DNA of 64,000 bases from contig OY729426.1 in the NCBI GenBank assembly GCA_963422365.1, positions 1,600,001 through 1,664,000 on the forward strand. The letters run 5' to 3'. Made by a program: the position numbers and the translations under genes. Under the pieces are notes generated by a model. The model was not told where the DNA came from. It did not search any database and saw nothing but the letters and a program-made list of their open reading frames with translations. Shown here piece after piece: positions 1,283 to 18,474 of the stretch (its first letter is position 1; each line of letters opens with the position of its first letter). The DNA is from Nitrospirales bacterium (GTDB lineage: Bacteria > Nitrospirota > Nitrospiria > Nitrospirales > UBA8639).

Positions 1283-2452
1283 TTATGCTCCCCTGAATTT
1301 GAGAGCATTGGGAATGTTCGTTCGCATGGCGCGAACCGCCGGGAGCAATCCGCCAAGGGTTGCCATGAAGACGCCGAAGAGGACGCCCCATAGTGCGATC
1401 CGAGGAGTCAGGACAAAACCATAGGCCAATTCCGACATGGTGGCGTAGTTAATGGTTGACAGAGAAGTGAATTGAAGCAATGACGCCAGCGCGATGCCCA
1501 GACCGGAGCCAAGGAGCCCGATCAAGACCGACTCAAACACAAAGAGGTTGAAAATCCTCCTTCGCGTGAATCCCATCGCACGCAGGGTGGCGATCTCGGT
1601 GGTGCGATGCGCGACCGCGCCGTACATCGTGATCATGGCGCCGAGGCTTGCCCCCGCGCTGAAGAGCCCAGTCAGCATAAGCCCCATGGTTCGGATAAAA
1701 TTCGAGAGACCGCCGGATCGTGATTCATAATAAGCGGCTTCTTTGGTAATGGCTATCTGCAGGCGGGGATCTTGGTCGATACGGGATTGGAGCGTGGGAA
1801 ATAGCGAGGGGTCGCGCGGTCGAAAAATGGCTGAAGAATAATACGTGCGTCCGAACGCGTCCATGAATCGATCGGCATCCCCCCACATTTCGGATTCAAA
1901 GCCGCTTCCGTCCGCTTCAAAGGTTCCGACCACGGTCCAGTTCTGTCTGCCGAACCGAAGCGTTTGGCCCAGATCCGCATTTTTAAAGCGTCGAGCGATC
2001 TCTTTGCCCGTCACCACTTCATTCGTTCCGGGACGCCACATGCGGCCCTTCACAAGCTTCACTTGAGACCGCACGTGAAACGAGTCTGCCGATCCCCCAC
2101 GGAGGGTCACGTTGCCCGCGGTGTCTGTGCCCCGTTTTACTAAGCTGATGAGCACCACGATTTCAGGCGAGAACAGCGAGTGGCCGTTCTGTTGAGCAAT
2201 TTCCGGAAACGTTCGTAAGATGGCCGTCTGTTCCCGATAGAGTCCGCTTCCGATCTCGGAGATGGCTCCTTTCCGAAGGACCAAGACATTGTCCATGGAG
2301 CCGGTATTGACTAAGGTGTGCTCGACGCCGTGTGCCAACATTAAGACTCCCACAAAGATGAACACGACCAGGCCTACTCCCATGATCGTCAACAGGTTGG
2401 TGGTTCGTCGAGCGAGCAGGTGACGGAAATTGTATGAGAAAAAAATCTGCAT
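1283..2452 (-). CDS. ABC transporter permease, FtsX/MacB family
   Basis: N-terminal TM, large periplasmic domain, 3 C-terminal TMs, RTTEIATLRAMGF motif. Confidence 0.9.
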   Translation of the reverse strand: MQIFFSYNFRHLLARRTTNLLTIMGVGLVVFIFVGVLMLAHGVEHTLVNTGSMDNVLVLRKGAISEIGSGLYREQTAILRTFPEIAQQNGHSLFSPEIVVLISLVKRGTDTAGNVTLRGGSADSFHVRSQVKLVKGRMWRPGTNEVVTGKEIARRFKNADLGQTLRFGRQNWTVVGTFEADGSGFESEMWGDADRFMDAFGRTYYSSAIFRPRDPSLFPTLQSRIDQDPRLQIAITKEAAYYESRSGGLSNFIRTMGLMLTGLFSAGASLGAMITMYGAVAHRTTEIATLRAMGFTRRRIFNLFVFESVLIGLLGSGLGIALASLLQFTSLSTINYATMSELAYGFVLTPRIALWGVLFGVFMATLGGLLPAVRAMRTNIPNALKFRGA

Positions 2453-2494
2453 GGATCTGAGCCGTCAATTCCTATCCAGAAGACATAAGGGCGG

Positions 2495-2596
2495 CCCCCC
2501 CCGCTAACCTTGTCCCCGACATTTGTTATTGGGGAAACTGCGAGGATGACAATTGGCTGTTTCTGTCACTCCCGATATTTTTAGTCGGGAATCCAG
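2495..2596. repeat. Composite/nested REP-like palindromes between the two permease genes
   Basis: ccccgctaa[ccttgtccccgacatttgttattgggg]aaactgcgaggatgaca followed by tgtcactcccga...tcgggaatccag. Confidence 0.6.
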
Positions 2597-2674
2597 TCTC
2601 CGCATCTCATGCGGCCTAGAAAAGGTGCGATCCCTCGAACCCTTGGGGGATCGTGCGGTTAGAACGGGCATCAT

Positions 2675-3841
2675 TTATCCCATATGACGGAGTTCATTCC
2701 GAATCCGGCTGCGGAGGCAGAGCACAAACGGGATGACTGCCCCAACCAGCCCAATACTTACACTGAGGACCACCGCCAGCATCGGCAACTGAGCAGGTAG
2801 CTCAAACACCGTGAAAAACCCTCCCAAATTGCTGGTGAGGAACATGCCGAACCATCTGCTCGCGGGATACAGAAGGGCGACCCCAAGGATTCCCCCGAAA
2901 AGAGAGAGACATACCGATTCGCCGAAAATCAAGAGACTGAGATGAGGAGCCCGAAACCCCAACGTCTTCAAGATCCCGTATTCATGATGCCGTTCGCGAA
3001 CGCTCATTGCCATGGCATTGGCGACAACCAAGATACTGATGCCCAGGATGAGGAAAGACATGATTTCGACTACGCGAATGATAGCGCCGGACATGGTCAC
3101 CATGTTGGCTTGAAACGCCTGTTCTGTTTCCGTTCGGGTTTCCGCTATGGAATTGGTAAAGGCTTGATCGATCTCCGTGGAGATTTGTGCTGCCTGTTCG
3201 GGGTTGGCCATCTGAACCACAAACCAGCCCACGGTCCCTGCGCGAGCCGGATCGTCGAGTCGCCGGCGTTCGTCCACCGCGCTCCAGTGAAGATACATGC
3301 TCCCTTCAGACGCGGTCGGCGTCGTCCTTGTGTAGATTCCTCGTATCGTGAATTCCCAATCGCCCGGATAGAGACTGCCTTGCAGGCGGACAATGTCACC
3401 AATGTCCCAGCCGAGTTTGTCGGCGAGCTCTCGCCCCACGATGCAAGCCCGGCGATCCCGGAGAAAGGCGTTTCGTTGTGCCGGCGGCAAGTGAATTTCA
3501 GGATGGAGCCCTAAATACGAGGTCGACTCTACGGCATATCGAGGAAAAAATGCCTTGCCGTCCTTCCATCGTCCACCAAACCAGTTGGCGTAGGAAACCC
3601 CGCTCACGCCGGGAATTGCGGCAATGCGTTGTTGATAGGCCACCGGTAGTTGAAAGGAAATGGAAACGGCATGCCGGGTTCTCAAGCGATCGGGCTGCGA
3701 TCCCAGCGATCCCGCATACCAGGCCGTGACCGTTGTGCGAAGGAGACCAAAGGCCAGAATGATAATACACATGGTCAGGATGGTTAAAGTCGCCCGGAGC
3801 GGATGACGGAGCACGTTACGGAAGGTGTAGCGAAGCAACAT
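2675..3841 (-). CDS. ABC transporter permease, FtsX/MacB family
   Basis: Same topology as the neighbouring permease; SVRERHHEYGILKTLGF motif. Confidence 0.9.
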   Translation of the reverse strand: MLLRYTFRNVLRHPLRATLTILTMCIIILAFGLLRTTVTAWYAGSLGSQPDRLRTRHAVSISFQLPVAYQQRIAAIPGVSGVSYANWFGGRWKDGKAFFPRYAVESTSYLGLHPEIHLPPAQRNAFLRDRRACIVGRELADKLGWDIGDIVRLQGSLYPGDWEFTIRGIYTRTTPTASEGSMYLHWSAVDERRRLDDPARAGTVGWFVVQMANPEQAAQISTEIDQAFTNSIAETRTETEQAFQANMVTMSGAIIRVVEIMSFLILGISILVVANAMAMSVRERHHEYGILKTLGFRAPHLSLLIFGESVCLSLFGGILGVALLYPASRWFGMFLTSNLGGFFTVFELPAQLPMLAVVLSVSIGLVGAVIPFVLCLRSRIRNELRHMG

Positions 3842-4516
3842 TTATTCCAATCTTCCTTTCTGCAGCCTGCAGATAGTGGCGGCGCGTTGCGCGGCTTCGA
3901 GGTCATGGGTGACCAACACGATCGTCTTGCCTTGTTCCGTGTTCAGTCGTTGGAGCAGGGTCATGATCTCGTCTGCGGCGTCACTGTCCAAGTTGCCCGT
4001 CGGCTCATCCGCCAGGAGAATCGCGGGATCCATCACGATCGCTCGCGCAATCGCCACGCGCTGCTCCTGGCCTCCCGAGAGTTGACGCGGATAATGCGTC
4101 ATTCGGTCGGCCAATCCCACAAGCCGCAAGGCGGTCGACACGTGTTTCGCGCGTTTCGCACGGGACAGGGACGTCAGCAGCAACGGCAACTCCACGTTTT
4201 CAGCCGCCGTCAGAACCGGAATCAAATTGTAGAACTGGAAGATGAATCCGATTGTTTTGGCCCGCCATTTGGCAAGTTGATGGTCGGACAGTTGGTTCAC
4301 ATTGGTCTGATTGATGGACACGTGTCCGCGCACGGGACGGTCGAAGCCGGCCATCAGATTCAAAATGGTGGTTTTCCCCGACCCGGACGGGCCCAGCAAG
4401 GCCACGAAACTCGACGGTGCGATGGCGAGCGTCAGTTGCCTCAGGACGGGTATTTCGATGTCGTCTCGGAAATAGGAATGCGAAACTTTTTGAATGTCGA
4501 TGATGGATGAGGTCAT
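3842..4516 (-). CDS. ABC transporter ATP-binding protein (LolD/MacB-like)
   Basis: GPSGSGKT, LSGGQEQR, LLADEPTGNLD. Confidence 0.95.
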   Translation of the reverse strand: MTSSIIDIQKVSHSYFRDDIEIPVLRQLTLAIAPSSFVALLGPSGSGKTTILNLMAGFDRPVRGHVSINQTNVNQLSDHQLAKWRAKTIGFIFQFYNLIPVLTAAENVELPLLLTSLSRAKRAKHVSTALRLVGLADRMTHYPRQLSGGQEQRVAIARAIVMDPAILLADEPTGNLDSDAADEIMTLLQRLNTEQGKTIVLVTHDLEAAQRAATICRLQKGRLE

Positions 4517-4522
4517 GGGGCT

Positions 4523-5791
4523 TCACTCCTGAGCACGTTCTTGAATGAGACTGCCTGTGACGAGATCGTCGGAGGGATTGATGATAACGGTATTGCCTTG
4601 GACCACGTTCCCTCGAATGGGAATGAGCCCGTTACGAGGCGCTCCGGTTTCAACGGGTCTTTCCGACACCACGTTGTCCTTGACCAGCAGGACCGTCGTT
4701 TGTCCGTTTCGGGTTACGATGGCGTCGGGCGAAACCCCCAAGGTGTCAGGCGGTGCTTCTTCTTGGGAAGCCGACGAGGATTGACTCAAAAAAGTCACCG
4801 TGGCGCTCATGTCCGGAAAGACCTTTTCGTCCAGATCGTCAAAGCGAATTTTGACGGGAATGGTGGCTTTGGTCCGATCGGCCGTCGGGACAATCTGACT
4901 CACGCTGCCGTGATAGATATGGTCCGGAACGGCTTCCAAGCTAATATGGGCCGGTTGGTCGAGGCCCACCGAGTTGAGAAAGGACTCCGAGACTTCGGCT
5001 TCAACTTGCAATGTGCGTAAATCGGCGATCGCGGCGACCGAGCCTCGGGACTGAGAGGCGCCAGCCATCGGCGCCACGATTTCTCCGACTTCGGCGAATT
5101 TTTTCATGACGGTTCCATCAAAAGGGGCGCGAATCAAGGTGTTTTCAACGTCTACCTTCACCGCTTGAATTTCCGCTTGGGCCAGCTTCACCGCCGAGTA
5201 TGATGACCGCACCGATGCCCGCGCTCGACGCAACCGGGCTTCTGCGGTGTCGAGTTCTGACAGAGTGACAAGGCCCTTGTCCCATAAGACCTTGATTCGT
5301 CGGTAATGGAGCGTCGCTTCTCGTAACTCGGGCCGTGCATTGGCCAAGGCGGCCTTCGCGACGTCTAATCGGGCGTGCGTTTGTAAGAGCCTTGCCTTGA
5401 TGTCGGCCTGCTCCAGGGTCGCAATAATTTCTCCTTTGGTAACCCGATCTCCCACGTCAATGCGAACAGCCGTCAAACGGCCCGTGCCTTTTGACGCAAC
5501 GGATGCCTGCCGCTGGGCGACCACATATCCGGTTGCGGTCAAGAGCCCTCGAGCGGGTGACTGAAAGAAACGCTGTACGCGGGTGACTTGAACGCGAGTG
5601 GCGTGCAATGAAAGCCCACTCGTCATGTAGGAGCCGATCGAGAAAAGAATCACGGCGGCTCCGATCACGAACGCAAAGCTTTTCCCGAATCTCTTCGGCC
5701 TGTGAGTGGAATTTTTCTCTATGATGAGGTCGTCTAAATCTGGAGCGTCTTTACCCGAGGGAGAAGAGAAATTCTCGCTTTTCTCTTTCAT
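4523..5791 (-). CDS. Efflux periplasmic adaptor (MFP, MacA/HlyD-like)
   Basis: N-terminal TM, lipoyl halves (GDRVTKGE, IRAPFDGTV), alpha-hairpin, beta-barrel. Confidence 0.9.
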   Translation of the reverse strand: MKEKSENFSSPSGKDAPDLDDLIIEKNSTHRPKRFGKSFAFVIGAAVILFSIGSYMTSGLSLHATRVQVTRVQRFFQSPARGLLTATGYVVAQRQASVASKGTGRLTAVRIDVGDRVTKGEIIATLEQADIKARLLQTHARLDVAKAALANARPELREATLHYRRIKVLWDKGLVTLSELDTAEARLRRARASVRSSYSAVKLAQAEIQAVKVDVENTLIRAPFDGTVMKKFAEVGEIVAPMAGASQSRGSVAAIADLRTLQVEAEVSESFLNSVGLDQPAHISLEAVPDHIYHGSVSQIVPTADRTKATIPVKIRFDDLDEKVFPDMSATVTFLSQSSSASQEEAPPDTLGVSPDAIVTRNGQTTVLLVKDNVVSERPVETGAPRNGLIPIRGNVVQGNTVIINPSDDLVTGSLIQERAQE

Positions 5792-6378
5792 GCATGCGTT
5801 CCTGTCTGATAACCGGAATGGAGAGCATCTCGAAAGAACCGTGGTGATAATCCCGTCGCCTTTTTGAAAAAATGGCTGAAAGAAAACTGGTCTTGGAATC
5901 CGAGGGCCTGGGCGATTTCGGTCAAATTCTGTTCGGAATTTTCTAAAAGGCGTTTGGCCGTTTGAAGGCGAAGCCGTTTCAAATACGCAGAGAAGGGTTC
6001 TCCCATGTGTAGAATGAAGAAAACAGAACAGTACTTTTCCGAATATCCAAAATGTTCTGATAAATCCTTGAGGGTCAAGCCCTGGTGAAGATGGGTCACG
6101 ATGAATTCGTGGAGCCGTTCGGACAGGGTGGGGTTCGATGTCGCGAGGGTGTCGGAATCGGGTGACAGTGCCCGTAAAACGAATTCCTTCGCGATTTGTT
6201 GCTTGTCATGGTTTTGTCGACCTTGATAAAAGCGCCTAGCCCAATTGGCGGTATACGCAAACAATTCGCGGAGTAAGGCATGCTCATCGGCGGCACTGGA
6301 TGGTGACAAGGGACCCTTGTCCTTATCGAGGACGATGACTGAGGCAGAATGGAGATGTTCTTTTTCGTCCGTATTCAT
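5788..6378 (-). CDS. AraC-family transcriptional regulator
   Basis: C-terminal double HTH (LKDLSEHFGYSEKY...IAQALGFQDQFSFSHFFKKATGLSPRFFR); stop overlaps the MFP start. Confidence 0.9.
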   Translation of the reverse strand: MNTDEKEHLHSASVIVLDKDKGPLSPSSAADEHALLRELFAYTANWARRFYQGRQNHDKQQIAKEFVLRALSPDSDTLATSNPTLSERLHEFIVTHLHQGLTLKDLSEHFGYSEKYCSVFFILHMGEPFSAYLKRLRLQTAKRLLENSEQNLTEIAQALGFQDQFSFSHFFKKATGLSPRFFRDALHSGYQTGTHA

Positions 6379-6491
6379 TCAGACCCTTAGCGCGTCATAA
6401 GGGGGGCGGGAGGCTTATCAGGAGGAGGTTGGAGCCTCCCGCTCGTGAAGGGGTGTGATTGATTCCACTCCTTCCTTGGCTGACATTCAAC

Positions 6492-6529
6492 AAAAAAGCC
6501 CAAGAAAGCATTATGCATTCTTGGGCTCT
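6492..6529 (-). terminator. Intrinsic terminator inside the minus-strand cluster
   Basis: mRNA AGAGCCCAAGAAUGCAUAAUGCUUUCUUGGGCUUUUUU: long stem plus U-tract. Confidence 0.7.
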
Positions 6530-6574
6530 GGACCAACGGTCTCGGGCTCTATTCAAATAATCCGTGACGTGTCG

Positions 6575-7087
6575 TTACTCAGGGTCTCCTCGCATCATCA
6601 AGGGATGATTAAAAATCCACATTTCGTACATGGGAATCGCAAACATGATCAAAAACGTAATCGTCATGAGAACGTCGCCGGTCAACAGGGTCAATACGAA
6701 GAGGGGCGACACATAGGTGATGAGCCACGGCGACACGAGATCCAACGTCACGCCCACGAAGGCAACCCAGGTGGTCATCACTTTTACGAGAGGGCTGGCC
6801 ATGGTCAGATACAACACATGAACCATAATCAGAAACACGACCGGTAGCGTGAATAAGTGAAAATGTGTGGTTTCGGCCAATTGCCCGAACGACATGGGCT
6901 CGCCGAAATTATCATCAGACCCGCGATAGTGTTGGGCAATGCCTTTGGGTGTCAGGTCGGTCATGCTGTGTGCCCACACAAAGGTGAAGACAAATCCCGC
7001 GAACATGAAGAGAAGGAACCATGTGTACACCAATCGTATGTGGCGGTCAGTGTCACGTAGCCGAAACCGAGCATTGAAATTCCGCAT
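6575..7087 (-). CDS. Uncharacterised ~4-TM inner-membrane protein with candidate heme/metal His ligands
   Basis: Four hydrophobic segments; THFHLF...VH (H75, H77, H90). Function inferred only. Confidence 0.75.
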   Translation of the reverse strand: MRNFNARFRLRDTDRHIRLVYTWFLLFMFAGFVFTFVWAHSMTDLTPKGIAQHYRGSDDNFGEPMSFGQLAETTHFHLFTLPVVFLIMVHVLYLTMASPLVKVMTTWVAFVGVTLDLVSPWLITYVSPLFVLTLLTGDVLMTITFLIMFAIPMYEMWIFNHPLMMRGDPE

Positions 7088-7221
7088 CGTAAAGCAATCT
7101 TCACCGAGAGCCTTGAGATCTTCTTCTGTCAGTCGAGCCCTGAGCCTTTTCCGTCTCCCTCATTTCCACGCACGCACATCCTCGACCACGACCGGGGTTG
7201 GGAATTGAGAAGATCCCACGC

Positions 7222-7935
7222 TTAGAGCCCGAAGAGGGCTTCAAAGAATCCTTTTTCAGACTTGCCGGCGACCATGATGTTGGTACCGAGACCACGGGGC
7301 TTCAAATAGAATTCATTCACCAGCACGAGGACGCGTTTCACGCCGGCGCTTGCGGACCGCACGGACATCGTCGCCCCCGTGATATTAATGATATCTCGAT
7401 TAATCCGTATCGGGTCCCCGATGGTTTTCCCCTGGTACTGATAATTGAACCGTTTGGTGGCGATCTCATTGCCTCGGGCTTCCCGATACACCAGCACTTC
7501 AAAGTTCGTGACTTCGCCGGCTGAATCAACGGCCACCATGTACGTAATGGGGCGATGCTTGCCGATGGTATTCTGGACGATGGCATATCCGTCGATGTTT
7601 CCTTGGGTCTCCCCAATATAGACATCGAAGGAGGTTTCCGGAAATTCCCAGCCGATGGCTTGTTCGACCATGGTTTTTTGCTCTGCAGTCAAGATCAAGG
7701 TGTCCTTGCGAATCTTTTCGGAATCCGGAAACATGACGGTCGCAGCGTCTTCCTTCGTGAAATAAACTTCTAAATGTCCTAGTTCCTCAGGCGTGAGCCA
7801 TCGATTGAGCTCATGATCCCAGATTTGTTCCTGCGGGGAGGCTTGGGCAAACCCCTGGGATAAAGGAATCCCTAGCAAGACACTGCACATGGCAACAATT
7901 CCTGTAAGTCTTTGAATTAACTTAAAACCGTACAT
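7222..7935 (-). CDS. Exported FMN-binding domain protein (ApbE flavinylation substrate)
   Basis: Signal peptide; GKHRPITYMVAV...YRE.RG; flavinylation motif DIINITGATMS ([S/T]GA[S/T]). Confidence 0.85.
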   Translation of the reverse strand: MYGFKLIQRLTGIVAMCSVLLGIPLSQGFAQASPQEQIWDHELNRWLTPEELGHLEVYFTKEDAATVMFPDSEKIRKDTLILTAEQKTMVEQAIGWEFPETSFDVYIGETQGNIDGYAIVQNTIGKHRPITYMVAVDSAGEVTNFEVLVYREARGNEIATKRFNYQYQGKTIGDPIRINRDIINITGATMSVRSASAGVKRVLVLVNEFYLKPRGLGTNIMVAGKSEKGFFEALFGL

Positions 7936-8372
7936 CCCTTATCCTTTAGTTGTTTGGTAATCCGTTGGGCCAGACGCCGCTCCTCCTCGGCGATGGGGGG
8001 AATGCGTCTCCAGCCGGATTGCGACCTCGCACCCATGGGAGAAAAAAACTCCCGGACTTGCCGAACGGAGATCCTGATCGGCTGCCGGGCTGCTTCGACA
8101 TTCAGAAAAAATCGGGCGCGTTCCTCGTTGGACTCGCGTGAAAACACCCCGGCTTTTCGCTTGGAAGCAAAACCCACCCAATCGGTCGTAATCACCCCCT
8201 TGTCCTTATCCGTTTGACTCAACGCGAATTCATCCACGCTCGCGAGGGCCACGGACCATGCCTGGTCATAGGAACAGCCGGCGTTCACGGTGCTGGGTGC
8301 GCCGCCGGAAAGAGCCGCGCACCCCACCGTGAAAACAACCAAGAGCACAGAAAGAACGATATGCTTACCCAT
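7917..8372 (-). CDS. Lipoprotein (possibly BamC-like helix-grip domain)
   Basis: ATG at 8372 after aaggaa; lipobox FTVGC; DKDKGVITTDW motif. Confidence 0.75.
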   Translation of the reverse strand: MGKHIVLSVLLVVFTVGCAALSGGAPSTVNAGCSYDQAWSVALASVDEFALSQTDKDKGVITTDWVGFASKRKAGVFSRESNEERARFFLNVEAARQPIRISVRQVREFFSPMGARSQSGWRRIPPIAEEERRLAQRITKQLKDKGCTVLS

Positions 8373-8380
8373 AAATTCCT

Positions 8381-8421
8381 TCCCCCATCTCCCCTGGAGG
8401 GAGAGGGCCGGGGTGAGGGGA
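8381..8421. repeat. CCCTCTCCC-Nx-GGGAGAGGG palindromic repeat family
   Basis: Related copies at ~10090-10131, ~10546-10570, ~13108-13166. Confidence 0.55.
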
Positions 8422-8428
8422 TCTTCGC

Positions 8429-9967
8429 CTAGAAGTACGTCGACATATTGAATTGCCACCCGTCGCGATTCGTGGCCGGGTCATTATTTTCCCTCTCATG
8501 TCTATTAAACGTATAGGCTATCTTGAGGACCGAATCTTCTATCGGCCGGAAATTGAGCCCCAGGGTCAACCGGTCGATGGCATTCGGGTTGCTGTCATCA
8601 TCGGTGTTGGTATCCACCTGTCCCCAACGAACGATGCCCGTAAACGTCGAGTCCTGGCCGAAGTAGCCGGGCAAGGCCCTGGTGAGCCCATCCGGCATAA
8701 AGTGGTAATTCAATTGCACGTAATAGCCGAACATATTTTCGGGGACGACGTAACTTCTTCCGAAAGATACATCCTGAAGGCGCCTCGTTGCTCCGGTAGT
8801 ATCCTGAGTGAATATTCGACTCGCAGGACACTGACTTTCATCTTCCAGGGTACAAATCGACTGTGTCCCGCTCCCTTCGGCGTTGGCCCAGGCGGCTTCA
8901 CCCTGGATGTCAAAGGGCCCTCGTTGCAGGTTCCCGTCGATGGCGAGCAGGGTCAGGTAATGGTCCTCAGGGTCGTCCTCCTTGTTCCATTGGCCGTGGT
9001 GAATGGACCCGGCCACCTCGACTCCCAACACAGGGCTGAACGAGATACGGCTGACAATCGCCTTGTTTCGGTTGTTATCCTTTTGAAAACTTCCGCGAGC
9101 AGATCGCAACCCGCTTCCTTCTTCGACCGAAAACTGGCCGTCATCGCCCACAAAACCATTCGTGAGGTAAAATTCGTAGTCGATCTTGGAAAGCGCGGTC
9201 GGATAGACCGTGCCGAAAAAGCCGATCCCGCTTTCGGCAAACGTGGAAGGCAGGATCAATCGGCTCACCATAGGCCGAAGCGGCAAATCGTTCAAGGGCG
9301 AGTCGTGGATGAGGTTGAACCGGCCCATGGGCATCAGGATGATGCCCCCACGCAGGTTGAATGCGTCGTTGAACCGGTAGTCCATGGTGGCGAATTCCAT
9401 CTTGATGTCCCCGTCCCCTTGGTTGCCCTGGGGGCCGCCGTGTTCAACCTCGAGTTCAGCGGCCACGCTGAGCCGGTCCGTGACCTGGGAATAGAAGAAC
9501 GGCACGAAGCGTTCCTGGTCGAAATCAATCCCGTTTCTACAATCCCGTGAGCCTCCTGAATTGTGTTTCGCGCCAGGCTTGCCGTCACAGTCCGAGATTG
9601 TGAAGTCGATGTACCCGCCGATGATGGTTTTCGGCGCCTTGACAAAAGGTCTGGCGTAGATGGTCCGTCCACCCTGCAGGCCAGCACCACCCGAGAAGTC
9701 CGTGCCGTATCGGATTGACTGTTTTGTGGTGTCGCCCATGGCCGGCGCGGAAGTCCCCATTTTGCGCGGGGGCTGCGGTGCCGCTATGGCCGGCCCTCCC
9801 GCTGCAGGTGGCTGCTGCTGTTGTCGCTGTTGTTTTGACCACTCTTCAAACATTTTTCGTATCTGTTCCATTTGGGCAGGAGTAAATTCTTCTCCCTCGG
9901 CCCAGACAGTTGTGTGCGGCACAATCATGAGGACCATCATTGCCCCCGCGATCAATAATCGTCGCAT
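8429..9967 (-). CDS. Outer-membrane beta-barrel protein (porin-like)
   Basis: GGAGG then ATG at 9967; signal peptide; Gln/Pro-rich N-terminus; amphipathic strands (ELEVEHG); C-terminal ...STYF; two Cys pairs in probable loops. Confidence 0.85.
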   Translation of the reverse strand: MRRLLIAGAMMVLMIVPHTTVWAEGEEFTPAQMEQIRKMFEEWSKQQRQQQQPPAAGGPAIAAPQPPRKMGTSAPAMGDTTKQSIRYGTDFSGGAGLQGGRTIYARPFVKAPKTIIGGYIDFTISDCDGKPGAKHNSGGSRDCRNGIDFDQERFVPFFYSQVTDRLSVAAELEVEHGGPQGNQGDGDIKMEFATMDYRFNDAFNLRGGIILMPMGRFNLIHDSPLNDLPLRPMVSRLILPSTFAESGIGFFGTVYPTALSKIDYEFYLTNGFVGDDGQFSVEEGSGLRSARGSFQKDNNRNKAIVSRISFSPVLGVEVAGSIHHGQWNKEDDPEDHYLTLLAIDGNLQRGPFDIQGEAAWANAEGSGTQSICTLEDESQCPASRIFTQDTTGATRRLQDVSFGRSYVVPENMFGYYVQLNYHFMPDGLTRALPGYFGQDSTFTGIVRWGQVDTNTDDDSNPNAIDRLTLGLNFRPIEDSVLKIAYTFNRHERENNDPATNRDGWQFNMSTYF

Positions 9968-10143
9968 CGAACGACCTCCTTGTTGTTGGGGACTCTGCCT
10001 GTCCTCTGGATTACTCAAGGGGCTCTTGTGGCCCTCAAATTCCGTCTTGGTATTGTGTGTGTCTAGTGGATTTCCACCTCTCTAATATACCTCCCTCTCC
10101 CCCTGTGGGAGAGGGGCGGGGTAAGGGGGGGCTTACCCTTTTG

Positions 10144-10341
10144 CTAATAGCCGCATGGCGCTAAGATGACTTCGGTTTCCTTGAGACTGTTATAGGAAAT
10201 AGAGACGATGCGTTTACAGCGTTTACACTTGAGTTCAAGGTTCTCTCCGCGAATTTTTGCGATGAGTTGGCCGCATTCACATCTCGCCTCTGTAGGCTTG
10301 AATTGCTTCCCTAGCCACCGAGTATTTCGATCAGCATCCAT
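10144..10341 (-). CDS. Small Cys4 zinc-ribbon protein, phage Mu Com-like
   Basis: EARCECGQLIAK...LELKCKRCKRI resembles the Com pattern (RC..C.KLL...EIKCPRCK). Start could be TTG 10350 or ATG 10341. Confidence 0.7.
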   Translation of the reverse strand: MDADRNTRWLGKQFKPTEARCECGQLIAKIRGENLELKCKRCKRIVSISYNSLKETEVILAPCGY

Positions 10342-10422
10342 TGAATTCAAAAGAAAGTTGTGGAGTTTCCAAAAAACCCCTAATCAAAAATTAGAATGAT
10401 ACTTGTTTTTATTTAAATTGAT

Positions 10423-10467
10423 TTTGAGAACTTTTATTAACATAGAGCAAGTTTTGTGGCTTGTCAA
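10423..10467 (-). promoter_or_regulatory. sigma70 promoter with overlapping Fur-box-like site
   Basis: TTGACA (10467-10462), 17 bp, TATGTT (10444-10439); TTTGAGAACTTTTATTAAC at 10423-10441 overlaps the -10 and start region. Confidence 0.65.
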
Positions 10468-10739
10468 CTCTTTTCGGTCATAAAGAAAAATATGACTGCA
10501 ACCTGTTGATCGTATTGGTAAAATGAGATGATTGACTCTTATCCGGCCTCTCCCTTGGAGGGAGAAGGCCGAAGAAGTGGATCCCCGCTAAAAACTGCGG
10601 GGAGGACAAGAGGATGTACTGCGGGGATGACAAGCAAGAGCACGAAGGACAAGAAAGAACGGGAATGACCGCATGAATTCCGAAAGGCCATCAAAGCGTA
10701 GTTGTCTGGGGTCTCAGCCGTGAGGCCAACGCAGGGACT

Positions 10740-11319
10740 ATGATGGGCAGAAAAGTCTTGTTGGGGGTAGCGATTCTTTCTCTTGTTGTTGTGACGGGAT
10801 GTGCGTCAGGGCTTTCGGATACTTCCCCGGACTCGATGACGAGTGAATTGGCGTTTGGCTATGTTCGAGTCGAGACCAAAGGGCCTCATCCGCGTGCGTT
10901 TCCAACCAAACTGAGGTTTTTCCCCCTGACCAATCAAGAGACGGGAGCACGATTTCGAGTTGACGTAAATTCCAAATCGGGCGTGTTTTCGATGAGATTA
11001 CCGGCTGGACCGTATTCCATTGACCGAGTGCAATTTAATGCAGGCCCGTTTCAGGTTGAATCCCATGTGCAATTGACATTTCAGGTACCCAAAAAGAAGT
11101 TGGCTAGGGGGCTGGCAATTTGAGGTCGAAACGCCGCGTACCGTTCGGCTTGTGCGGATTCGGATTCTTGAAGGGGATGCGGAGTTCTCAAAGAAATTTT
11201 CCGCGGATCTCGGATCAGAACGAGCACCCATTGAAACGACGTTGCCGAAACCTGAGACATTCGAAGCTCGTGTGTTTTCGGTTGCCCCTCAACCGAGAGT
11301 CAAATATTTCCGTCGTTGA
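10740..11319 (+). pseudogene. Frameshifted lipoprotein gene upstream of apbE
   Basis: Lipobox VTGC; the frame breaks near 11105, and another frame continues WQFEVETPRTVR...PRVKYFRR to TGA 11319. Confidence 0.6.
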
Positions 11320-11335
11320 TAAACTGCCTGACAAA

Positions 11336-12370
11336 ATGATGAAAGGGGTTCCTCTCGTCTTGGTTGGACTCTTGGGTGTCTCTTTCGCGTGTTGGCCGGG
11401 CTTCAGTCTGCAGGGATATGCTGCCGCACCCCATGTGGCCAAGCGCGGCCAAATGCATATGGGGACCCTGGTCTTTTTGACGTCCGTCGCCCCAAATGAA
11501 CGGGTGGCTCACGATGCCATTGAAAAAGGGTTTGCCGAAATTCACCGCCTGGAAGAAATCTTGAGTGCGTGGATTCCAGACAGTGAACTCTCCCGCGTCA
11601 ATGCCGCGGCAGGGAAAACGCCCATCAAGGTCAGTCCGGAAACCTTAGAGGTCTTGGCGCGCTCTGTAGACATGGCTCGAGTGACCGATGGGGGTTTCAA
11701 CGTTGCTATTGGTCCGGCCGTAGAGGCCTGGAATATTAGTCGTGAAGGGCGTATCCCGACTCAGGAAGAATTAGAGGCCACACGTCCTTCCATGGATCTT
11801 TCCGCTATTCATCTCAATAAGGACGCGGGCACCGTATATCTGGCTCGTTCCGGGATGCAGGTGGATATCGGCGGGATCGGCAAGGGATATGCCGCGGATT
11901 TCGTGGCCCGCGTGATGCGAGAAGCCGGTGCCTCAGCGGGCGTGGTCGCCATTTCCGGGGATATTACAACCTTTGGGCGCTTGCCCGATGGCCAACGTTT
12001 CGTGTTCGGCATCCAGCATCCTCGAAAAGAGAATGGGATCACGATCGGGCAACTTGAACTCGAAGATGAGGCCGTTTCCACGGCTGGTGATTACCAACGA
12101 TATTTTCTGAAGGACGGCATTCGTTATCATCACATTCTCGACCCTCAAACGCTTCAGCCCGCGCGTCTCTCTCAGAGTGTGACCATCGTAGCCCAAACCG
12201 GTGTGCTTGCCGATGGGCTCGATACGGGAATTTTTGTCATGGGTCCGGAAAAAGGGATGGCTTTGATTGAACGCCTGCCCGGAGTCGAAGGCGTGATTGT
12301 CGGTGCGGATGGAACCGTGTCCGTCTCTTCGGGATTACAAGACCGGTTGCAGATGAGTCCAGGGCCGTAA
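11336..12370 (+). CDS. apbE: FAD:protein FMN transferase ApbE
   Basis: MGT, SELSRVN, DIGGIGKGYAAD, STAGDYQRY, RYHHILDP, ADGLDT; start reassigned to ATG 11336. Confidence 0.95.
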   Translation: MMKGVPLVLVGLLGVSFACWPGFSLQGYAAAPHVAKRGQMHMGTLVFLTSVAPNERVAHDAIEKGFAEIHRLEEILSAWIPDSELSRVNAAAGKTPIKVSPETLEVLARSVDMARVTDGGFNVAIGPAVEAWNISREGRIPTQEELEATRPSMDLSAIHLNKDAGTVYLARSGMQVDIGGIGKGYAADFVARVMREAGASAGVVAISGDITTFGRLPDGQRFVFGIQHPRKENGITIGQLELEDEAVSTAGDYQRYFLKDGIRYHHILDPQTLQPARLSQSVTIVAQTGVLADGLDTGIFVMGPEKGMALIERLPGVEGVIVGADGTVSVSSGLQDRLQMSPGP

Positions 12371-12392
12371 CCGGTTCGGGGAAGGCAGGCTC

Positions 12393-12505
12393 TGTCATGC
12401 CCGCCGGGGTGTGATCGGGCATCCATCTGGCTTGTTCAACGCTTGTCCTCATGAAAGGGGAAGGGCAATCCAATCTGGATTCCCGCTAGAAACTGCGGGA
12501 ATGAC
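12393..12505. repeat. Inverted pair of REP-like palindromes (REPIN/BIME-like)
   Basis: tgtcatgcccg...cgggcatcca and ctggattcccgc...gcgggaatgac in opposite orientation. Confidence 0.6.
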
Positions 12506-13015
12506 CATTTCAACAAGCCCAGACCACGTCAGGCGCTAAACGCGAAAACATCCAAACAAATGAATGAGTCTTGTCAACGAATAAGTGAGGGACTTATACG
12601 GAATGCTAGTCGGTGGGATTAGTTGAACGAGTGACTAGAAACCGTTATTGCGTGGGGAATAGAACGCGATAAAGAAGATCATCGCGAGATACGAGAAATA
12701 CGTTTGAGGCAACTTCGTAATGGTCTGGATAGTGTGTTTCTAGGAGTTTTTTCGTTTCACCAGTTGGCTTGATTAGCACAACTGCAACACAGACATTGTG
12801 CCTCCTTTCTCTTCGTGAGAGAAACTCAGGATATGAAATCCTTTTCCCCTAGCAAACCTATTATTTAAAATACTTATCCGTGCCAAATCGAAACGCCTAA
12901 CAAGTGATTATGGTTCCATGTTCAGCATTTATTATCCCCGACGGCAAGGATTAACAGTCTGAACCCATGCTATTTTCACAGGGCATGGTTACTTTCGGGA
13001 AGGACAGTCATCACG

Positions 13016-13208
13016 GTCATTCCCTCTCTGGTGTGAGCGGGAATCCATTCCCCGATTAAAACCTTCGGAGACATGCTGGTTTTTTCTGCGCGTGTCCTCA
13101 CGCCTGTCCCCTCCACCCCAGCCCCCGACTCAAGGCCGGGGGCTGGCTCTCTCTCCATGGGAGGGATACATACGAAGTGAATTCCAGCTAGACACTGCGG
13201 GAATGACA
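13016..13208. repeat. Composite REP-like cluster
   Basis: gtcattccc...gcgggaatcca and attccagc...gcgggaatgac flanking a CCCTCTCC-type palindrome. Confidence 0.55.
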
Positions 13209-13215
13209 ATACGAT

Positions 13216-13974
13216 TTATTGTTCGTCGTCTTCGTTTTTCTTATGCATCATATTGCCGCCATGGGCCTTCATGCGTTCGTGAATGTTATCCATCCGAGAT
13301 CGTTGCTCGGGGGACAACACGGCTTTGGCGTCCCGCTTGGCTTTGATTGAAGCCATGTAGAGCTTCGTCTTCAAGGCATGCATGGCGTTGAATTGCACTT
13401 CAATGTCGGAGAGACTCGCTTTCTCGTCTTTCAAGACTTCATGCAGGTCGACACTGGCTAATTGCACTTCGGCCTTCATCTTGATCCGAGTCTTCTTATA
13501 CGTCGTCTTGAGCGCATGAAGTTGCTGCTCTTGTTTGGCTGTTACACTCATTCCTTCTTTAAATTTCAATAGATGCGTAATAAATTCCGTTGCGCCCTGA
13601 TGGGTGCCGGGATGCGTAGAACCGAAACCATGGCGATCATGCCCTTTGGTGTGGTGGCTTCCGTATCCTGACGAATGCATTGGATGATGCCCTTTGCCAT
13701 GCCTCTTATGCATGCCATCATGTTGGGAAGACCGGGAATCGTCACCATGCCCCTGATACGAATCTTTTGGGTGATGGCCGCCGTCATGGGGCAATGCGCT
13801 CGATTTGCCGTGATTATGGAGGCTGGTGGCAGCATGAGCATCCTTCGAATCTTCATGCGGCAATCCATGCATAGAGTCAGGAGGGTCGGCAAAAGCTGGA
13901 ACGGCAGACAGCAAAACGAGCATGGTCAACAGGGAAACAGGTGAAAACCAGGAAGGTGGTTCATGGATTCTCAT
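13216..13974 (-). CDS. Exported His-rich protein with Spy/CpxP/ZraP-like helical domain
   Basis: AAGGAGG then ATG at 13974; signal peptide ending AFA; 21 His in about 98 aa; VLSPEQR (LTxxQ-like). Confidence 0.8.
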   Translation of the reverse strand: MRIHEPPSWFSPVSLLTMLVLLSAVPAFADPPDSMHGLPHEDSKDAHAATSLHNHGKSSALPHDGGHHPKDSYQGHGDDSRSSQHDGMHKRHGKGHHPMHSSGYGSHHTKGHDRHGFGSTHPGTHQGATEFITHLLKFKEGMSVTAKQEQQLHALKTTYKKTRIKMKAEVQLASVDLHEVLKDEKASLSDIEVQFNAMHALKTKLYMASIKAKRDAKAVLSPEQRSRMDNIHERMKAHGGNMMHKKNEDDEQ

Positions 13975-14152
13975 GTTCGGTTCCTCCTTATGAATGGTTG
14001 GTCGATGGGATAAAGGGTTTGTCGGTGTGAAGTTTTCAACATTCGCGGGGTGTCCTCTGAGTGACGACAATAGGCCATTATAAAACACTGAAGATAGTGA
14101 TTGCGAATTGAGGCCTTGGCCTGTTTCAAGTGACGCCAAGAGAAAACGCGCA

Positions 14153-15220
14153 TCACGCATTTCTGTCAAAGAGTACCGTGTGGGTGGCAATGACGTTCAA
14201 TCCCACCTTTGAGTCGAGAGGGAACAATTGGGTCGAGGCTTCGCTGCTATGAACGAGATCGCCGGAAGCCAGGCGGATTCCATAAATCGTCTCCGAGCCT
14301 CGAAACTGCCGGGATTCAACGGTTCCGTCTCCGTTATTGGTTCCACAAATTTGGATGTCATCCGGTCGAATCATGACCACGACTTCAGGGCCGCCCGGGT
14401 AGCCGTTCGGCATCGGGAACGTGCCGAGTTGAGTCACGACGACAGAATCGTGGATGGTTCCAGGGATGAAGTCGGCGTGCCCCACAAACTCCGCGACAAA
14501 GGGCGAAACCGGAAGATGGTATATGGTTTCGGGTGCTGCGAATTGTTCGAGTTTCCCGTTATTCAAGACGGCCACGTCATCAGCCATGGCAAAGGCTTCT
14601 TCATGATCATGCGTGACGAGAACGGCGGTGGTTTGAGTTTTTTTCAGCAAGTGCAGGAGTTCCATGCGCATGCGGCAAGTCGTATCCGGATCCAGGTTGC
14701 TGAACGGCTCGTCCAACAGGAGCAGCACCGGTTGGGGGGCAAGGGCGCGTGCCAATGCCGCGCGTTGCTGTTGGCCGCCCGACAGCGAATGAGGGTATCG
14801 TCGGGCAAGTTCTGAAAGCCCTGTGAGAGACAACATCTCATCAATTTGGCCCCTCCGGTTGTTTGCTGTTGCATGCGGCAACCCGAATCCCACGTTATCC
14901 TGTACGGTCAAGTGCGGAAAGAGCGCATAGTCCTGAAAAACCATGCCGACCCGCCGTTGTTCGGTGGGGACGTGCCGATCAGTCGCCGAGACGATTGCCC
15001 CGTTCAGCCTGATTTCGCCGGCGGACACCGATTCAAATCCCGCGATAGCCCGAAGCGTTGTGGTCTTCCCGCATCCTGACGGCCCTAACAGACAAATAAT
15101 GTCACCTTTCTGAGCCGAAAAGGAAATCCCTTCTAGCGCTAAGGTGTCGGCTTCATACGAGCAGGCGACGTCTTTCATCTCGAGCACAATGGGCTTGTCG
15201 TCGGGAGGTCGTGGCATCAT
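14153..15220 (-). CDS. fbpC: Fe(III) ABC transporter ATPase (FutC/FbpC/SfuC)
   Basis: GPSGCGKT, VFQDYALFPH, LSGGQQQR, TOBE-like C-terminus; operon context. Confidence 0.9.
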   Translation of the reverse strand: MMPRPPDDKPIVLEMKDVACSYEADTLALEGISFSAQKGDIICLLGPSGCGKTTTLRAIAGFESVSAGEIRLNGAIVSATDRHVPTEQRRVGMVFQDYALFPHLTVQDNVGFGLPHATANNRRGQIDEMLSLTGLSELARRYPHSLSGGQQQRAALARALAPQPVLLLLDEPFSNLDPDTTCRMRMELLHLLKKTQTTAVLVTHDHEEAFAMADDVAVLNNGKLEQFAAPETIYHLPVSPFVAEFVGHADFIPGTIHDSVVVTQLGTFPMPNGYPGGPEVVVMIRPDDIQICGTNNGDGTVESRQFRGSETIYGIRLASGDLVHSSEASTQLFPLDSKVGLNVIATHTVLFDRNA

Positions 15221-15291
15221 ATCCGTCTAAGAAAAATCTTCCTTGCCGGATTTGCTAAAGCGGATCTCATGGCAGAGTGGACACGGTGAGG

Positions 15292-16911
15292 TTACGTCGG
15301 TTGTCGATCTTTTTGCATCAATAATAACACGACCGGAATGGTAATGACCACGATCAGCAAGGCCGGAGGCGCAGCTAATTGATACAGTTCCTCACTGGCT
15401 TCAAGCCAAATTCTGACGGCGAGTGTGTCGAATCCCACGGGACGCAGCAGGAGTGAAGCCGGCAATTCCTTCATACATTGGACAAACACGAAGATCCAGG
15501 CACTCAGAAACCCACCTCGCACCAACGGCAGGGTCACGTGAAAAAAGGTTCGAAGGGATCGAGCCCCAAGGCTTCGCGCCGCCTCTTCGAGATTCGGCGT
15601 GAGCTGCTGAAGGGTGGATTCCATGCCTTGCAGTGCTGCCGGGAGAAAATGGACCAAATAGGCCAGGAGCAAGACGAGCACCGTGCCATACAGTTGTGGA
15701 ATGGTGTGCGAGACCAAGACGAATACGGCGAGGGCGGCGACCGGCCCTGGAAGCACATAGCCGGTATACGCCCCTTGCACACAAAAAGTACTGGTCCAGG
15801 TCTGATGTCGGCACGCTAAATAGGCGAGGGGAATTCCACAGATTACGGCCACCGTGGCCGTGATACTCGAGAGCGAGACACTGTTCCACACGTATCCGAT
15901 GAATTCATGAGAAATCTCACCGGCAGACGCGGCTTTAACAGTCCATTGAATGAGCAGAAGCACCGGCAGGCCGAAGGCCGCTCCGAACACGAGAAGAAGA
16001 TAGCCTGTAAACAGCAGAGCCGTGAAGGGAGGGCAAGGTTGAGGAACCGGTGTTCGATACCGGCCGGTGGTTTGGTAAAACCGGCTCCGTTGTCGGAACC
16101 ACCGTTCGCCGAACAGAAAGATAAATGCGCACGCGACTAATACCAGACTCAAACAGGCGGCTGCCGTGTTGTCGAATCGTCCGGTCATTTGCTGGTACAC
16201 GGCATAGGTAAAAGTTTGAAAGCGCAACAGCGAAACCGCGCCGAAATCAGAAGCGACGTAGAGAATCGCCAAGAAAAGTCCGGCGATCAGTGATGGGCGG
16301 ATGAGCGGAAGCGACACTCGGAAGAACGTCGTCACTCGATTGGCTCCGGTCGTGCGGGCGACTTCTTCAAAGGAGATATTAAAATTTTTGAGAGCCGATC
16401 GAGCCAACAGGTATACAAACGGAAACGTGTTCAACGCAAGAATGAGAACCGCGCCTGCAAAACTAAAAGGTGAAAACAAAAGAGAGTCTGTTCCGGCCAT
16501 GGTTTGCCAGACGTGTTCCAGCGTGCCCCCGCGTTTTAACAGGTAGGTATAGGTATAGGCCAGAACGTAGGAGGGGATGGACAAGGGCAAAATCAGCAAC
16601 CAATCCCATATTCGGGACCCGAGAAAGGTATAACGAGTCAGGATCCAAGCGAGTGAGACTCCCAGGGTCAGATTCACGACTGCGACGCCAAGGGATAAGG
16701 AGAGCGTGTTGAAGAGTAATTCCGGGACCCGTGTAGCCCAGAGTCTTCGCCACACCGCCGGGTCTGCCGTTAGGGCCGAAAAGGCGATGTAGAACAACGG
16801 CAGCATGATCGCAAGGGCCAGGGAAAAGCCGAGCAGGACAAGCGGAGAAGGGAAACGAAAACGGAGCGATGACAGTGGGAGAAAAGGGTTAGCGGAGTCC
16901 AACGTCTTCAA
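15292..16911 (-). CDS. fbpB: Fe(III) ABC transporter permease (FutB/FbpB/SfuB)
   Basis: Two BPD permease halves with EAA motifs (EEVARTTG, EEAARSLG). Confidence 0.9.
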   Translation of the reverse strand: MKTLDSANPFLPLSSLRFRFPSPLVLLGFSLALAIMLPLFYIAFSALTADPAVWRRLWATRVPELLFNTLSLSLGVAVVNLTLGVSLAWILTRYTFLGSRIWDWLLILPLSIPSYVLAYTYTYLLKRGGTLEHVWQTMAGTDSLLFSPFSFAGAVLILALNTFPFVYLLARSALKNFNISFEEVARTTGANRVTTFFRVSLPLIRPSLIAGLFLAILYVASDFGAVSLLRFQTFTYAVYQQMTGRFDNTAAACLSLVLVACAFIFLFGERWFRQRSRFYQTTGRYRTPVPQPCPPFTALLFTGYLLLVFGAAFGLPVLLLIQWTVKAASAGEISHEFIGYVWNSVSLSSITATVAVICGIPLAYLACRHQTWTSTFCVQGAYTGYVLPGPVAALAVFVLVSHTIPQLYGTVLVLLLAYLVHFLPAALQGMESTLQQLTPNLEEAARSLGARSLRTFFHVTLPLVRGGFLSAWIFVFVQCMKELPASLLLRPVGFDTLAVRIWLEASEELYQLAAPPALLIVVITIPVVLLLMQKDRQPT

Positions 16912-17929: not shown

Positions 17930-18414
17930 CGTCGTTCTATCCTTGCATTGGCGATCAAGTCTCGCCCGCAATTTTTGCACTCACCCTTCGGCAATTGTAT
18001 GGGGGTCCCATATAGTTCTAGTTTATGGGTATGAATCGTAAAACCGTTATTTCTCGCGACTTCTTCTTGTAATGCTTCAATCTGGCAATTCTCGAATTCT
18101 ATGATTTTATCACACACCGTGCAGATGAGATGATCATGGTGCCCTTTGTGGGCCACATTATCGAACTGAGTCTGATTGCCGAAATGTTGCTCTTGCGCGA
18201 GGCCGGTCTCGCACAGAAGTTTAAGCGTGCGGTAGACCGTGGCAAGGCCGATATGGGGGTTCTTCTTGGAGAGCAGCCGATACATCTGTTCGGCCGTTAC
18301 GTGTTCCATCTTCAAAAAGGTCTTGAGAATGTTCTCACGTTGGCGGGTCAGCTTAAGGCTGTTTTTAGAAAGGTGTTGCTTGAGAATCTCGAGTTCTTTG
18401 ATGGGCTTTGCCAT
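17926..18414 (-). CDS. fur: Fur-family transcriptional repressor
   Basis: LTRQR, GLATVYRTL, HHDHLICTVC, C-terminal CKNC; heads the Fe(III) uptake operon. Confidence 0.92.
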   Translation of the reverse strand: MAKPIKELEILKQHLSKNSLKLTRQRENILKTFLKMEHVTAEQMYRLLSKKNPHIGLATVYRTLKLLCETGLAQEQHFGNQTQFDNVAHKGHHDHLICTVCDKIIEFENCQIEALQEEVARNNGFTIHTHKLELYGTPIQLPKGECKNCGRDLIANARIERR

Positions 18415-18445
18415 ACCAATAAATTCCCATGTGTATAGAAAAGCT

Positions 18446-18474
18446 ATTAAACCGAAATATGGTCGAAGGGTCAA
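18446..18474 (-). promoter_or_regulatory. sigma70 promoter of the fur operon
   Basis: TTGACC, 17 bp, TTTAAT, 32 bp upstream of the fur ATG. Confidence 0.5.

Follow-up and report, generated by a model that had tools for sequence, protein, structure and literature searches.

A Com-like zinc-ribbon protein and conserved RNA elements form a candidate two-level switch in a porin-led operon of Nitrospirales

Introduction

In the antitermination systems of BglG/LicT/SacY (RAT) and of the ANTAR proteins (AmiR, NasR, EutV), the 3' strand of a small RNA structure is also the 5' arm of a terminator, and the RNA offers a two-fold site to two protein units. In the ANTAR case the site is a tandem of hairpins and can gate either a terminator or a ribosome site. 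Another small RNA-binding regulator, Com of bacteriophage Mu, selects the core GAG(N)2CC in SELEX (systematic ligand evolution through exponential enrichment), in its bipartite form with (N)2-3. It requires CC(N)2-3GAG in a hairpin loop that is closed by C-G and leaves GA unpaired, and its binding is thought to melt an adjacent translation-inhibition structure (PMC6483171). The Mu sequence record holds the hairpin AUGC-CUGCGA-GCAU. Here we analyze a chromosomal locus of a Nitrospirales bacterium related to nitrite oxidizers (assembly GCA_963422365.1, contig OY729426.1, positions 1,600,001 to 1,664,000; host judged from its relatives). This stretch of 64,000 nt is termed the window, and coordinates are counted from its first letter. 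The locus encodes a 65-aa protein with four cysteines (Cys4), which is probably an RNA-binding positive regulator of its own operon and would act at two levels, antitermination and translation of an outer-membrane porin.

Com-like genes have also been reported before llpA bacteriocin, tailocin cargo and levansucrase genes in Pseudomonas, where a general regulatory role was called unexplored (PMC6240691). As for the operon content, the psp porins of Geobacter metallireducens and Desulfuromonas are described with tandem Fur boxes, a weak likeness to PF07396 and homologues in Aquifex (PMC545781), and ApbE-flavinylation clusters have been linked to iron uptake (PMC8238504).

Results

A conserved Com-like gene is the first cistron of the operon

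The original prediction, an earlier note made from the letters of this DNA, had proposed a Com-like Cys4 protein and assumed that its open reading frame (ORF) is coding and not spurious. The latter was borne out. Over the core of 81 sequences, pairwise differences at codon positions 1, 2 and 3 were 0.20, 0.06 and 0.54, respectively. Because the differences concentrate at codon position 3, the 65-aa ORF is a real gene under purifying selection. Relatives of the protein were found in 94 of 301 genomes of the phylum; the two nearest families gave 27/27 and 53/57. A profile of the protein recovered 1158 representatives at E ≤ 0.001.

The proposed likeness to Com was supported by profile searches, without the PF10122 model being reached. 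The profile aligned with Mu Com (hhalign probability 91.7, E = 7.8e-7, 37% over 30 columns), and matches were obtained to PHROG 6417 ('translational regulator', E = 1.4e-5) and PHROG 13819 (gpCom, E = 0.0064), to which 72/93 and 45/93 family members matched, respectively. Feature likeness in Atlas was 0.95 to clusters of 'FluMu protein com' and 0.90 to a PF10122 cluster. The four cysteines were invariant in 70/70 homologues, with the spacing CxC-x15-CxxC compared to CxxC-x16-CxxC in Mu. On these profiles, the 65-aa protein is a conserved, coding, distant relative of Mu Com that falls below the Pfam cut-off. Its predicted structure was poor (predicted local distance difference test, pLDDT, 59; no Foldseek match at E ≤ 0.001), and a prediction with two copies and zinc scored 0.24, too low to be read either way. 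The metal of the Cys4 site is most simply regarded as structural. A Shine-Dalgarno (SD) sequence was absent before the Com-like gene in 67 of 78 loci, and the protein may therefore be made at a low level.

The porin leader carries Com-type hairpins

The 65-aa ORF and the porin gene are separated by a leader of 176 nt. For comparison the best 80 of 337 genomic matches were taken, which together with the window gave 80 distinct leaders. A hairpin closed by C-G with a loop C-N1-4-GA was present in 79/80 of these leaders compared to 13% of 8000 dinucleotide shuffles, and 36/80 contained two such hairpins. Marine-type leaders had two separate hairpins, and Nitrospira-type leaders had one hairpin atop a symmetric internal loop. 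The third pair of the hairpin 1 stem covaried (GC 21, AU 12, GU 8, n = 41; one closing pair was U-A), while loop interiors varied freely. The MAFFT alignment of the leaders misplaced some loops, so that pair counts there are too low; the hairpins were also parsed singly.

Tandem GAG(N)2CC motifs had been proposed in this leader, GAGGGCC-ACAA-GAGCCCC (10036-10019) followed by GAGTCCC (9995-9989). The proposed consensus is that of the published SELEX core (PMC6483171), and the positions are right. The 4-nt spacer of the first pair lies outside the published (N)2-3, and GAGTCCC is not a lone half-site: it represents the loop end and the 3' arm of the hairpin GGAC-AGGCAGA-GTCC (10004-9990). Conservation downstream of homologues was found as expected, the conserved unit being a hairpin or internal loop and not a linear repeat. 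The linear tandem motif (GAGNNCC-N2-5-GAGNNCC) is not distinctive alone, with 38 occurrences in the 2.5-Mb genome, where the double hairpin is found at a single place. A linear-repeat reading of the motif was ruled out, since loop length varies and the stems covary.

Two further features were noticed in and around the leader. Between the mini-gene stop and the hairpins, 47/80 leaders (against 5% in shuffles) contain an SD-like AGGAG(G/A) that no start codon follows; its distance to the porin start is mostly 107-122 nt (e.g. L004:5229-5235 and L067:5152-5159; a variant lies near 10073-10065 (-) in the window). It may stabilize the mRNA, serve as a standby site for ribosomes or pair with hairpin 1. 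GC-rich repeat-type hairpins of the CCCTCTCCC…GGGAGAGGG kind were seen in several intergenic regions (10120-10092, near 10560-10545, and 8420-8385) and are variable in homologues. The copy at 10120-10092 was considered as a switch component and ruled out, as it varies among homologues and has no U-run.

A predicted helix with the porin coding region encloses the ribosome site

When the segment from -85 to +30 was folded, the 3' arm of hairpin 2 paired with porin codons 7-9, enclosing both the SD sequence and the AUG. This pairing, termed the OFF helix, and hairpin 2 exclude each other. The pairing partner changes with the clade, giving 10 bp in Nitrospira-type leaders and 12 bp in L047. The signal-peptide glycine codon was GGG in 77/78 loci compared to 635/3095 glycine codons in the porin bodies, and the signal peptides are otherwise divergent. 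In the alignment of 68 full-length porins, this glycine column was GGG in 65/65 and ranked top of 49 invariant four-fold columns (median 0.61). Further support is provided by synonymous recoding: the OFF duplex beat recoded sequences at p ≤ 0.05 in 27/29 Nitrospira-type and 32/52 double-type loci. The predicted OFF helix is the counterpart of the translation-inhibition structure of Mu.

With the hairpins forced, the ribosome site of the window became cheaper to open by 2.3-5.2 kcal/mol, whichever of the four intervals was tried. Among double-hairpin leaders, 35/52 gained from the forced element in the interval -18..+13. Other intervals and leader types gave mixed folding energies, considered below, and the direction of the effect on porin translation is less certain than the structures themselves.

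A second element overlaps an intrinsic terminator within the operon

Between the membrane-protein gene and araC, we found a terminator-type form of the element that had been missed in the original prediction. It forms a symmetric 4x4 internal loop, and the element and an intrinsic terminator are mutually exclusive. In folding, the terminator was favored over the element by ~7 kcal/mol and is thus the default state. Because the same element overlaps an intrinsic terminator, the protein is likely an antiterminator as well.

Sixty-two loci reach far enough to show a mid-operon element, and it was present in 43 of them. When elements were chosen by the 3' strand and the terminator only, the 5' strand was found in 40/40 distinct cases compared to 0.4% in shuffles. 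The inner pairs were AU 24 / GC 16 and CG 24 / UA 12 / UG 3 / AA 1 (n = 40), and these 40 elements come mainly from two clades and therefore represent few independent changes. An alignment picked by the pattern itself was not counted toward conservation. Across the class, the strict pattern was detected in 87/151 genomes, mostly once, and the reversed control in 2. The copy at 6547-6523 was the only terminator-overlapping one among 35 relaxed matches in the genome, and genome-wide pattern scans revealed no trans target beyond it. Rfam 15 gave no match near the gathering score for window positions 5000-15000 or for 14 related loci. At Nitrospira-type loci (e.g. L060, L064, L169), an HD-domain protein (HD_5) stands behind the terminator where the window has araC; the switch is kept and the gated gene differs.

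The element and Com-like genes co-occur in other contexts

A motif-first scan of metagenomes yielded at least 123 matches (115 distinct, 43 with 300-nt flanks only). Among the matches listed, those with spacers of 6-11 nt overlapped a terminator in 39/57 and had a Com-like ORF in 20/57 cases; for other spacers the numbers were 1/58 and 0/58. In most of the 20 cases the Com-like ORF ended 7-35 nt before the element. The downstream genes varied and included porins, a cupredoxin, HD-domain, TPR and DUF6125 proteins (Pfam on 16/35 ORFs). On viral contigs, the motif pattern gave 23 matches, none with a Com-like ORF or terminator, and the protein search gave 10 loci. In four of these (L086, L087, L089, L094) the phage com gene overlaps a methyltransferase-like ORF that carries a DPPY motif, and CC-N-GAG repeats precede the start; the layout of L092 is of the terminator type.

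Paralogous Com-like genes of Nitrospirota are followed, sometimes preceded, by the element GC-CMGA-G…C-CAGA-GCCC, whose 3' strand is again the 5' arm of a terminator. At the 38 of 40 paralogue loci that were parsed, the element stood beside 12/21 KCKRCKR-type (15 by eye), 2/6 intermediate-type, 0/7 divergent-type and 1/4 CxxC-type genes. The seven divergent-type genes (…VVKCxRCG…; L146-L148, L150, L152, L154, L155), with no element nearby in 7/7, are mostly convergent with another gene. In L125, L131 and L133, terminator-type elements flank the Com-like gene on both sides, which would imply positive autoregulation.

Two arrangements were noted separately. In L314 (G098:C15:24500-41000), the Com-like gene has two terminator-type elements at distances of 10 and 14 kb. 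One of them precedes what we take, from sequence features, to be an extracytoplasmic function (ECF) sigma / FecR / TonB-receptor cassette, and the gene before the Com gene is presumably bacterioferritin-like. The genome of the window encodes a second Com-like paralogue (G000:C1:1588885-1589016 (-)) about 11 kb before the window, behind a TonB-receptor cluster and flanked by imperfect hairpins. It is followed by what we assume to be a toxin-antitoxin pair of the BrnT/BrnA type.

Promoter, Fur-type operators and operon content

The predicted TTGACA/17/TATGTT promoter ahead of the Cys4 ORF (10341-10144) is present at 10467-10439 (-), and an operator region rich in A and T comes after it. Sites of this quality are weak evidence alone, with 2 in 2.5 kb compared to 1.5 in shuffles; by eye, a TTGAC hexamer precedes the operator in nearly all 81 upstream regions. 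The Fur-like box proposed to overlap the promoter was recovered as tandem boxes scoring 13-15/19 in six homologues examined, the window copy itself reaching just 11/19. Fur and its relatives PerR, Zur or Mur are not separable by sequence alone.

The porin was predicted to fold into a barrel (pLDDT 59), and the closest solved structures in the fold search included OprO and OprP; its profile had no match among Protein Data Bank (PDB) sequences. Gene content, the operator, and the published Fur-boxed porins and flavinylation clusters suggest that the operon probably serves iron uptake. The nearby ABC transporter may carry ferric iron. All features are compiled in Table 1. Directly behind this transporter, a His-rich exported protein with an LTXXQ / heavy-metal-resistance-like domain is encoded at 13216-14190 (-). 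The window also contains an ORF of 3709 aa at 47526-58655 (-).

Table 1. Positions of the predicted switch components, the operon genes and neighboring features in the window.
Feature	Position	Strand	Remarks
Sigma-70-type promoter TTGACA-17-TATGTT	10439..10467	-	10/12 match; position kept in homologues
Fur-family operator 1, degenerate in window copy, directly behind -10 hexamer	10425..10439	-	homologue consensus TAATAATCGTTATCA
Fur-family operator 2, degenerate, 11/19	10392..10410	-	same place scores 14-15/19 in L035, L053, L072
Com-like Cys4 zinc-ribbon protein, 65 aa from ATG, CxC-x15-CxxC	10144..10341	-	no SD sequence ahead
GC-rich repeat-type hairpin	10092..10120	-	variable among homologues; probably inserted repeat
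Com-type hairpin 1: GGGC / loop CACAAGA / GCCC	10020..10034	-	covariation
Com-type hairpin 2: GGAC / loop AGGCAGA / GTCC	9990..10004	-	loop begins with A; homologues nearly always have C
OFF helix 5' strand GUCCCC	9988..9993	-	overlaps 3' arm of hairpin 2
Porin SD sequence AAGGAGG	9975..9981	-	
OFF helix 3' strand GGGGGC	9942..9947	-	porin codons 7-9
Outer-membrane porin, 512 aa, OprO/OprP-like barrel	8429..9967	-	Porin_O_P below cut-off for window copy
Predicted lipoprotein	7917..8372	-	weak DUF3576 / NlpB-like matches
Exported FMN-binding (flavinylation-target) protein	7222..7935	-	PF04205, E = 8e-8
Membrane protein resembling Aq_1264_TM	6575..7087	-	
Terminator-type Com element GC-CCGA-GAC-loop-GTC-CAGA-GCCC	6523..6547	-	symmetric 4x4 internal loop
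Intrinsic terminator hairpin and U-run	6489..6529	-	5' arm is 3' strand of element
AraC-family regulator	5788..6378	-	first gene past mid-operon terminator
Membrane-fusion protein, ABC ATPase, two MacB/LolC-type permeases	1283..5791	-	distal operon
Divergent lipoprotein gene and ApbE flavin transferase	10740..12370	+	
ABC transporter with solute-binding protein, and FUR-family gene	14153-18492		FUR-family gene at 17926-18492

Discussion

Proposed mechanism

We infer binding of the Cys4 protein to these elements, the positive sign of its effect, and the roles of Fur and iron, and propose the following course. Under iron shortage, a Fur-family repressor would leave the promoter, as the operators and the gene content suggest, and the Com-like first cistron would be made. 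By analogy to Mu Com, the protein would then bind a motif that runs from a C-G pair through a C.A mismatch to an unpaired G. The motif is presented twice, in two hairpin loops in the porin leader or in a symmetric internal loop mid-operon; these predicted structures rest on conservation and covariation. Because both forms of the element present it twice, two protein units per RNA site are suggested. In the leader, binding would hold hairpin 2 and break the helix between its 3' arm and codons 7-9, so that the SD sequence and start codon are freed and porin translation rises. At 6547-6523, binding would hold the starting strand of the terminator, and the polymerase would continue past it to araC and the genes for ABC export. 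The outcome would be a feed-forward threshold or delay under Fur, in which leaky transcripts yield neither porin nor distal gene products until the regulator has accumulated. The original idea of an RNA-level switch controlling a porin-led, chromosomal and probably iron-related operon is retained here, and the competing inhibitory structure adds to its support; it was incomplete, as the second element overlaps a terminator.

Several observations weigh against this mechanism. The window protein matches neither PF10122 (cut-off 22.9 bits) nor any NCBIfam model, PF10122 is matched weakly by 15/70 homologues at E ≤ 1 (best E = 7.6e-4), and the first knuckle is CxC instead of CxxC. Neither hairpin of the window fits the strict SELEX motif (N4 spacers; the hairpin 2 loop begins with A), and among 116 homologous hairpins 63 have N4 loops and 52 the strict spacing (N2 3, N3 49). 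The Fur-like box of the window scores no higher against the E. coli consensus than 5607 positions on the + strand of the genome. Of the 19 loci not counted with a mid-operon element, 10 have none within 420 nt, 4 are degenerate and 5 look intact (partly by eye). The coding G-run is absent in two loci, L041 and L042. When the whole leader was folded, hairpin 2 formed on its own, and the G-run of the coding sequence paired instead with the C-run of the repeat hairpin. Forcing any upstream hairpin tends to ease opening, and the energy test is thereby biased toward the model. Double-hairpin leaders show no median gain in the interval -18..+20 (16 gain, 18 lose, n = 52). For Nitrospira-type leaders at -16..+6, the forced element made opening harder in 26/29 in one computation and gave a loss in 18/29 in another (median -1.5). 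Finally, the loci are kin, mainly from two clades, and the counts overstate their independence.

Alternative explanations

The protein might act at both levels as proposed and in addition sense, binding RNA only with the right metal (zinc or iron) or in the reduced state. A metal input beside Fur had been raised as a possibility in the original prediction. The genes downstream frequently have a link to metals (porin, cupredoxin, TonB receptors, PepSY and bacterioferritin-like proteins, some of these named from sequence features), the CxC knuckle is unlike Mu Com, and a further layer beneath Fur might be expected to answer to a signal of its own. However, paralogues also precede non-metal genes (HD-domain, TPR, DUF6125) and sit in phage methyltransferase modules, and the zinc of Mu Com is described as structural (PMC6483171). 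Sensing is unsupported, and the anatomy is already accounted for by a feed-forward switch under Fur. We therefore regard a sensory Cys4 site as unlikely.

Less likely still is that the protein antiterminates mid-operon and represses porin translation, or only stabilizes or processes the leader, the freed coding segment then covering the ribosome site. The harder opening of Nitrospira-type leaders at -16..+6 would fit such an effect, and the start-less SD-like site in the leaders hints at a role in mRNA stability or standby. However, with intervals extended to +20 or +27 the same leaders gained in 27/29 and 29/29 cases, the OFF helix reaches 10-12 bp and is synonymously constrained, and Mu Com is an activator.

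The RNA elements could also be protein-independent switches, such as a metal-ion riboswitch or a thermometer, or the targets of another protein, with the Cys4 gene merely travelling along. Among the metagenome matches listed, 26 of the 39 terminator-overlapping ones with short spacers had no Com-like gene in the flank. At the G272 locus the element is present and both the Com gene and the 5' part of the porin gene are missing, and that genome gave no Com match; the G150 contig breaks off before reaching either. Against this, the short flanks of 43 of the 123 listed loci have to be considered, and distant elements are expected in a regulon: the window's own terminator-type element is 3.6 kb from the gene, and two in G098 are 10-14 kb away. 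The element comprises only ~25 nt and fits the known Com target, Com-like ORFs end closely before it in most of the 20 cases described above, it is missing beside the divergent paralogue type, and no Rfam family matched. Independent switches thus appear very improbable. A further reading, in which the protein binds the GAG..CC repeats in DNA and works as a transcription factor, is implied by the automatic name 'Com family DNA-binding transcriptional regulator', and zinc ribbons often bind DNA. It can hardly be reconciled with stems that carry G-U and compensatory pairs, loops that vary in length, an orientation confined to one strand, and sites far downstream of the promoter that overlap terminator arms.

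A positive regulator acting by antitermination and by unlocking translation is thus the reading we prefer. If true, the short list of protein antiterminators would gain a very small family that lacks a sensor, and iron control in nitrite oxidizers would gain a post-transcriptional layer. The parts are tiny and the predictions reach the level of single bases, which makes the model testable in vitro and in reporters, and the pair could serve as a compact two-mode RNA switch. A far wider view, in which Com-like zinc ribbons are widespread, undescribed cellular RNA regulators that antiterminate and unlock translation in one operon, with a Cys4 site reading Zn/Fe or redox beside Fur and Mu Com as a phage offshoot, appears doubtful to us.

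Comparison with known systems

The original remark that such a system is not known to have been described was upheld in the literature searched and in Rfam 15. In mostly open-access text, where a mention in a motif catalogue could be missed, we found no account of chromosomal Com-like regulators that have a target in RNA, are linked to iron or act by antitermination. For the psp porins and flavinylation clusters, the likeness is one of description: a porin weakly resembling PF07396 behind two Fur boxes, and an FMN-binding protein with ApbE nearby. The accessible text on these systems makes no mention of a zinc-finger mini-gene or an RNA switch (PMC545781, PMC8238504). The com-like genes of Pseudomonas are likewise Cys4 mini-genes, often without annotation, that precede a cellular cargo gene; they differ in their phage-derived contexts, and the part of that account available gives no RNA target, terminator or iron link (PMC6240691).

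The closest relative in function would be Com/mom of Mu (PF10122 Zn_ribbon_Com; PHROG 13819). In both systems a Cys4 zinc ribbon of ~60 aa is encoded just ahead of its target, which here is a predicted one. In Mu and in 79/80 of the leaders compared here, C-G closes a hairpin with a C…GA loop, and the 3' arm of this hairpin overlaps a structure blocking translation initiation (for Mu, PMC6483171) or predicted to do so. Unlike Mu com, the window gene is chromosomal, conserved across Nitrospirales, preceded by a Fur-type operator and encodes a CxC first knuckle. It does not overlap its presumed target gene, that of the porin, from which it is separated by the 176-nt gap, and it has no prophage late operon or DNA-modification neighbor; its neighbors are porin, FMN-binding, ApbE, ABC and fur genes. 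The loops are mostly one base longer and are doubled. The blocking helix encloses the SD sequence and AUG via codons 7-9, whereas in Mu the start codon itself is paired. Overlap of a second element form with intrinsic terminators is not described for Mu. In this respect the locus resembles the RAT and ANTAR systems, with which it shares a conserved RNA structure mutually exclusive with an intrinsic terminator. It differs from them in that the protein has no CAT, PRD or ANTAR Pfam match and no sensor domain, and in that the element belongs to no Rfam family. The operon module is thus predicted to resemble Com-mom in its action on the porin leader and a RAT or ANTAR antiterminator in the middle of the operon, and it lies outside those families and outside Pfam Com. 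Com has so far been studied only as a phage translational activator; here, one RNA motif would gate a ribosome site and a terminator within a single Nitrospirales operon.

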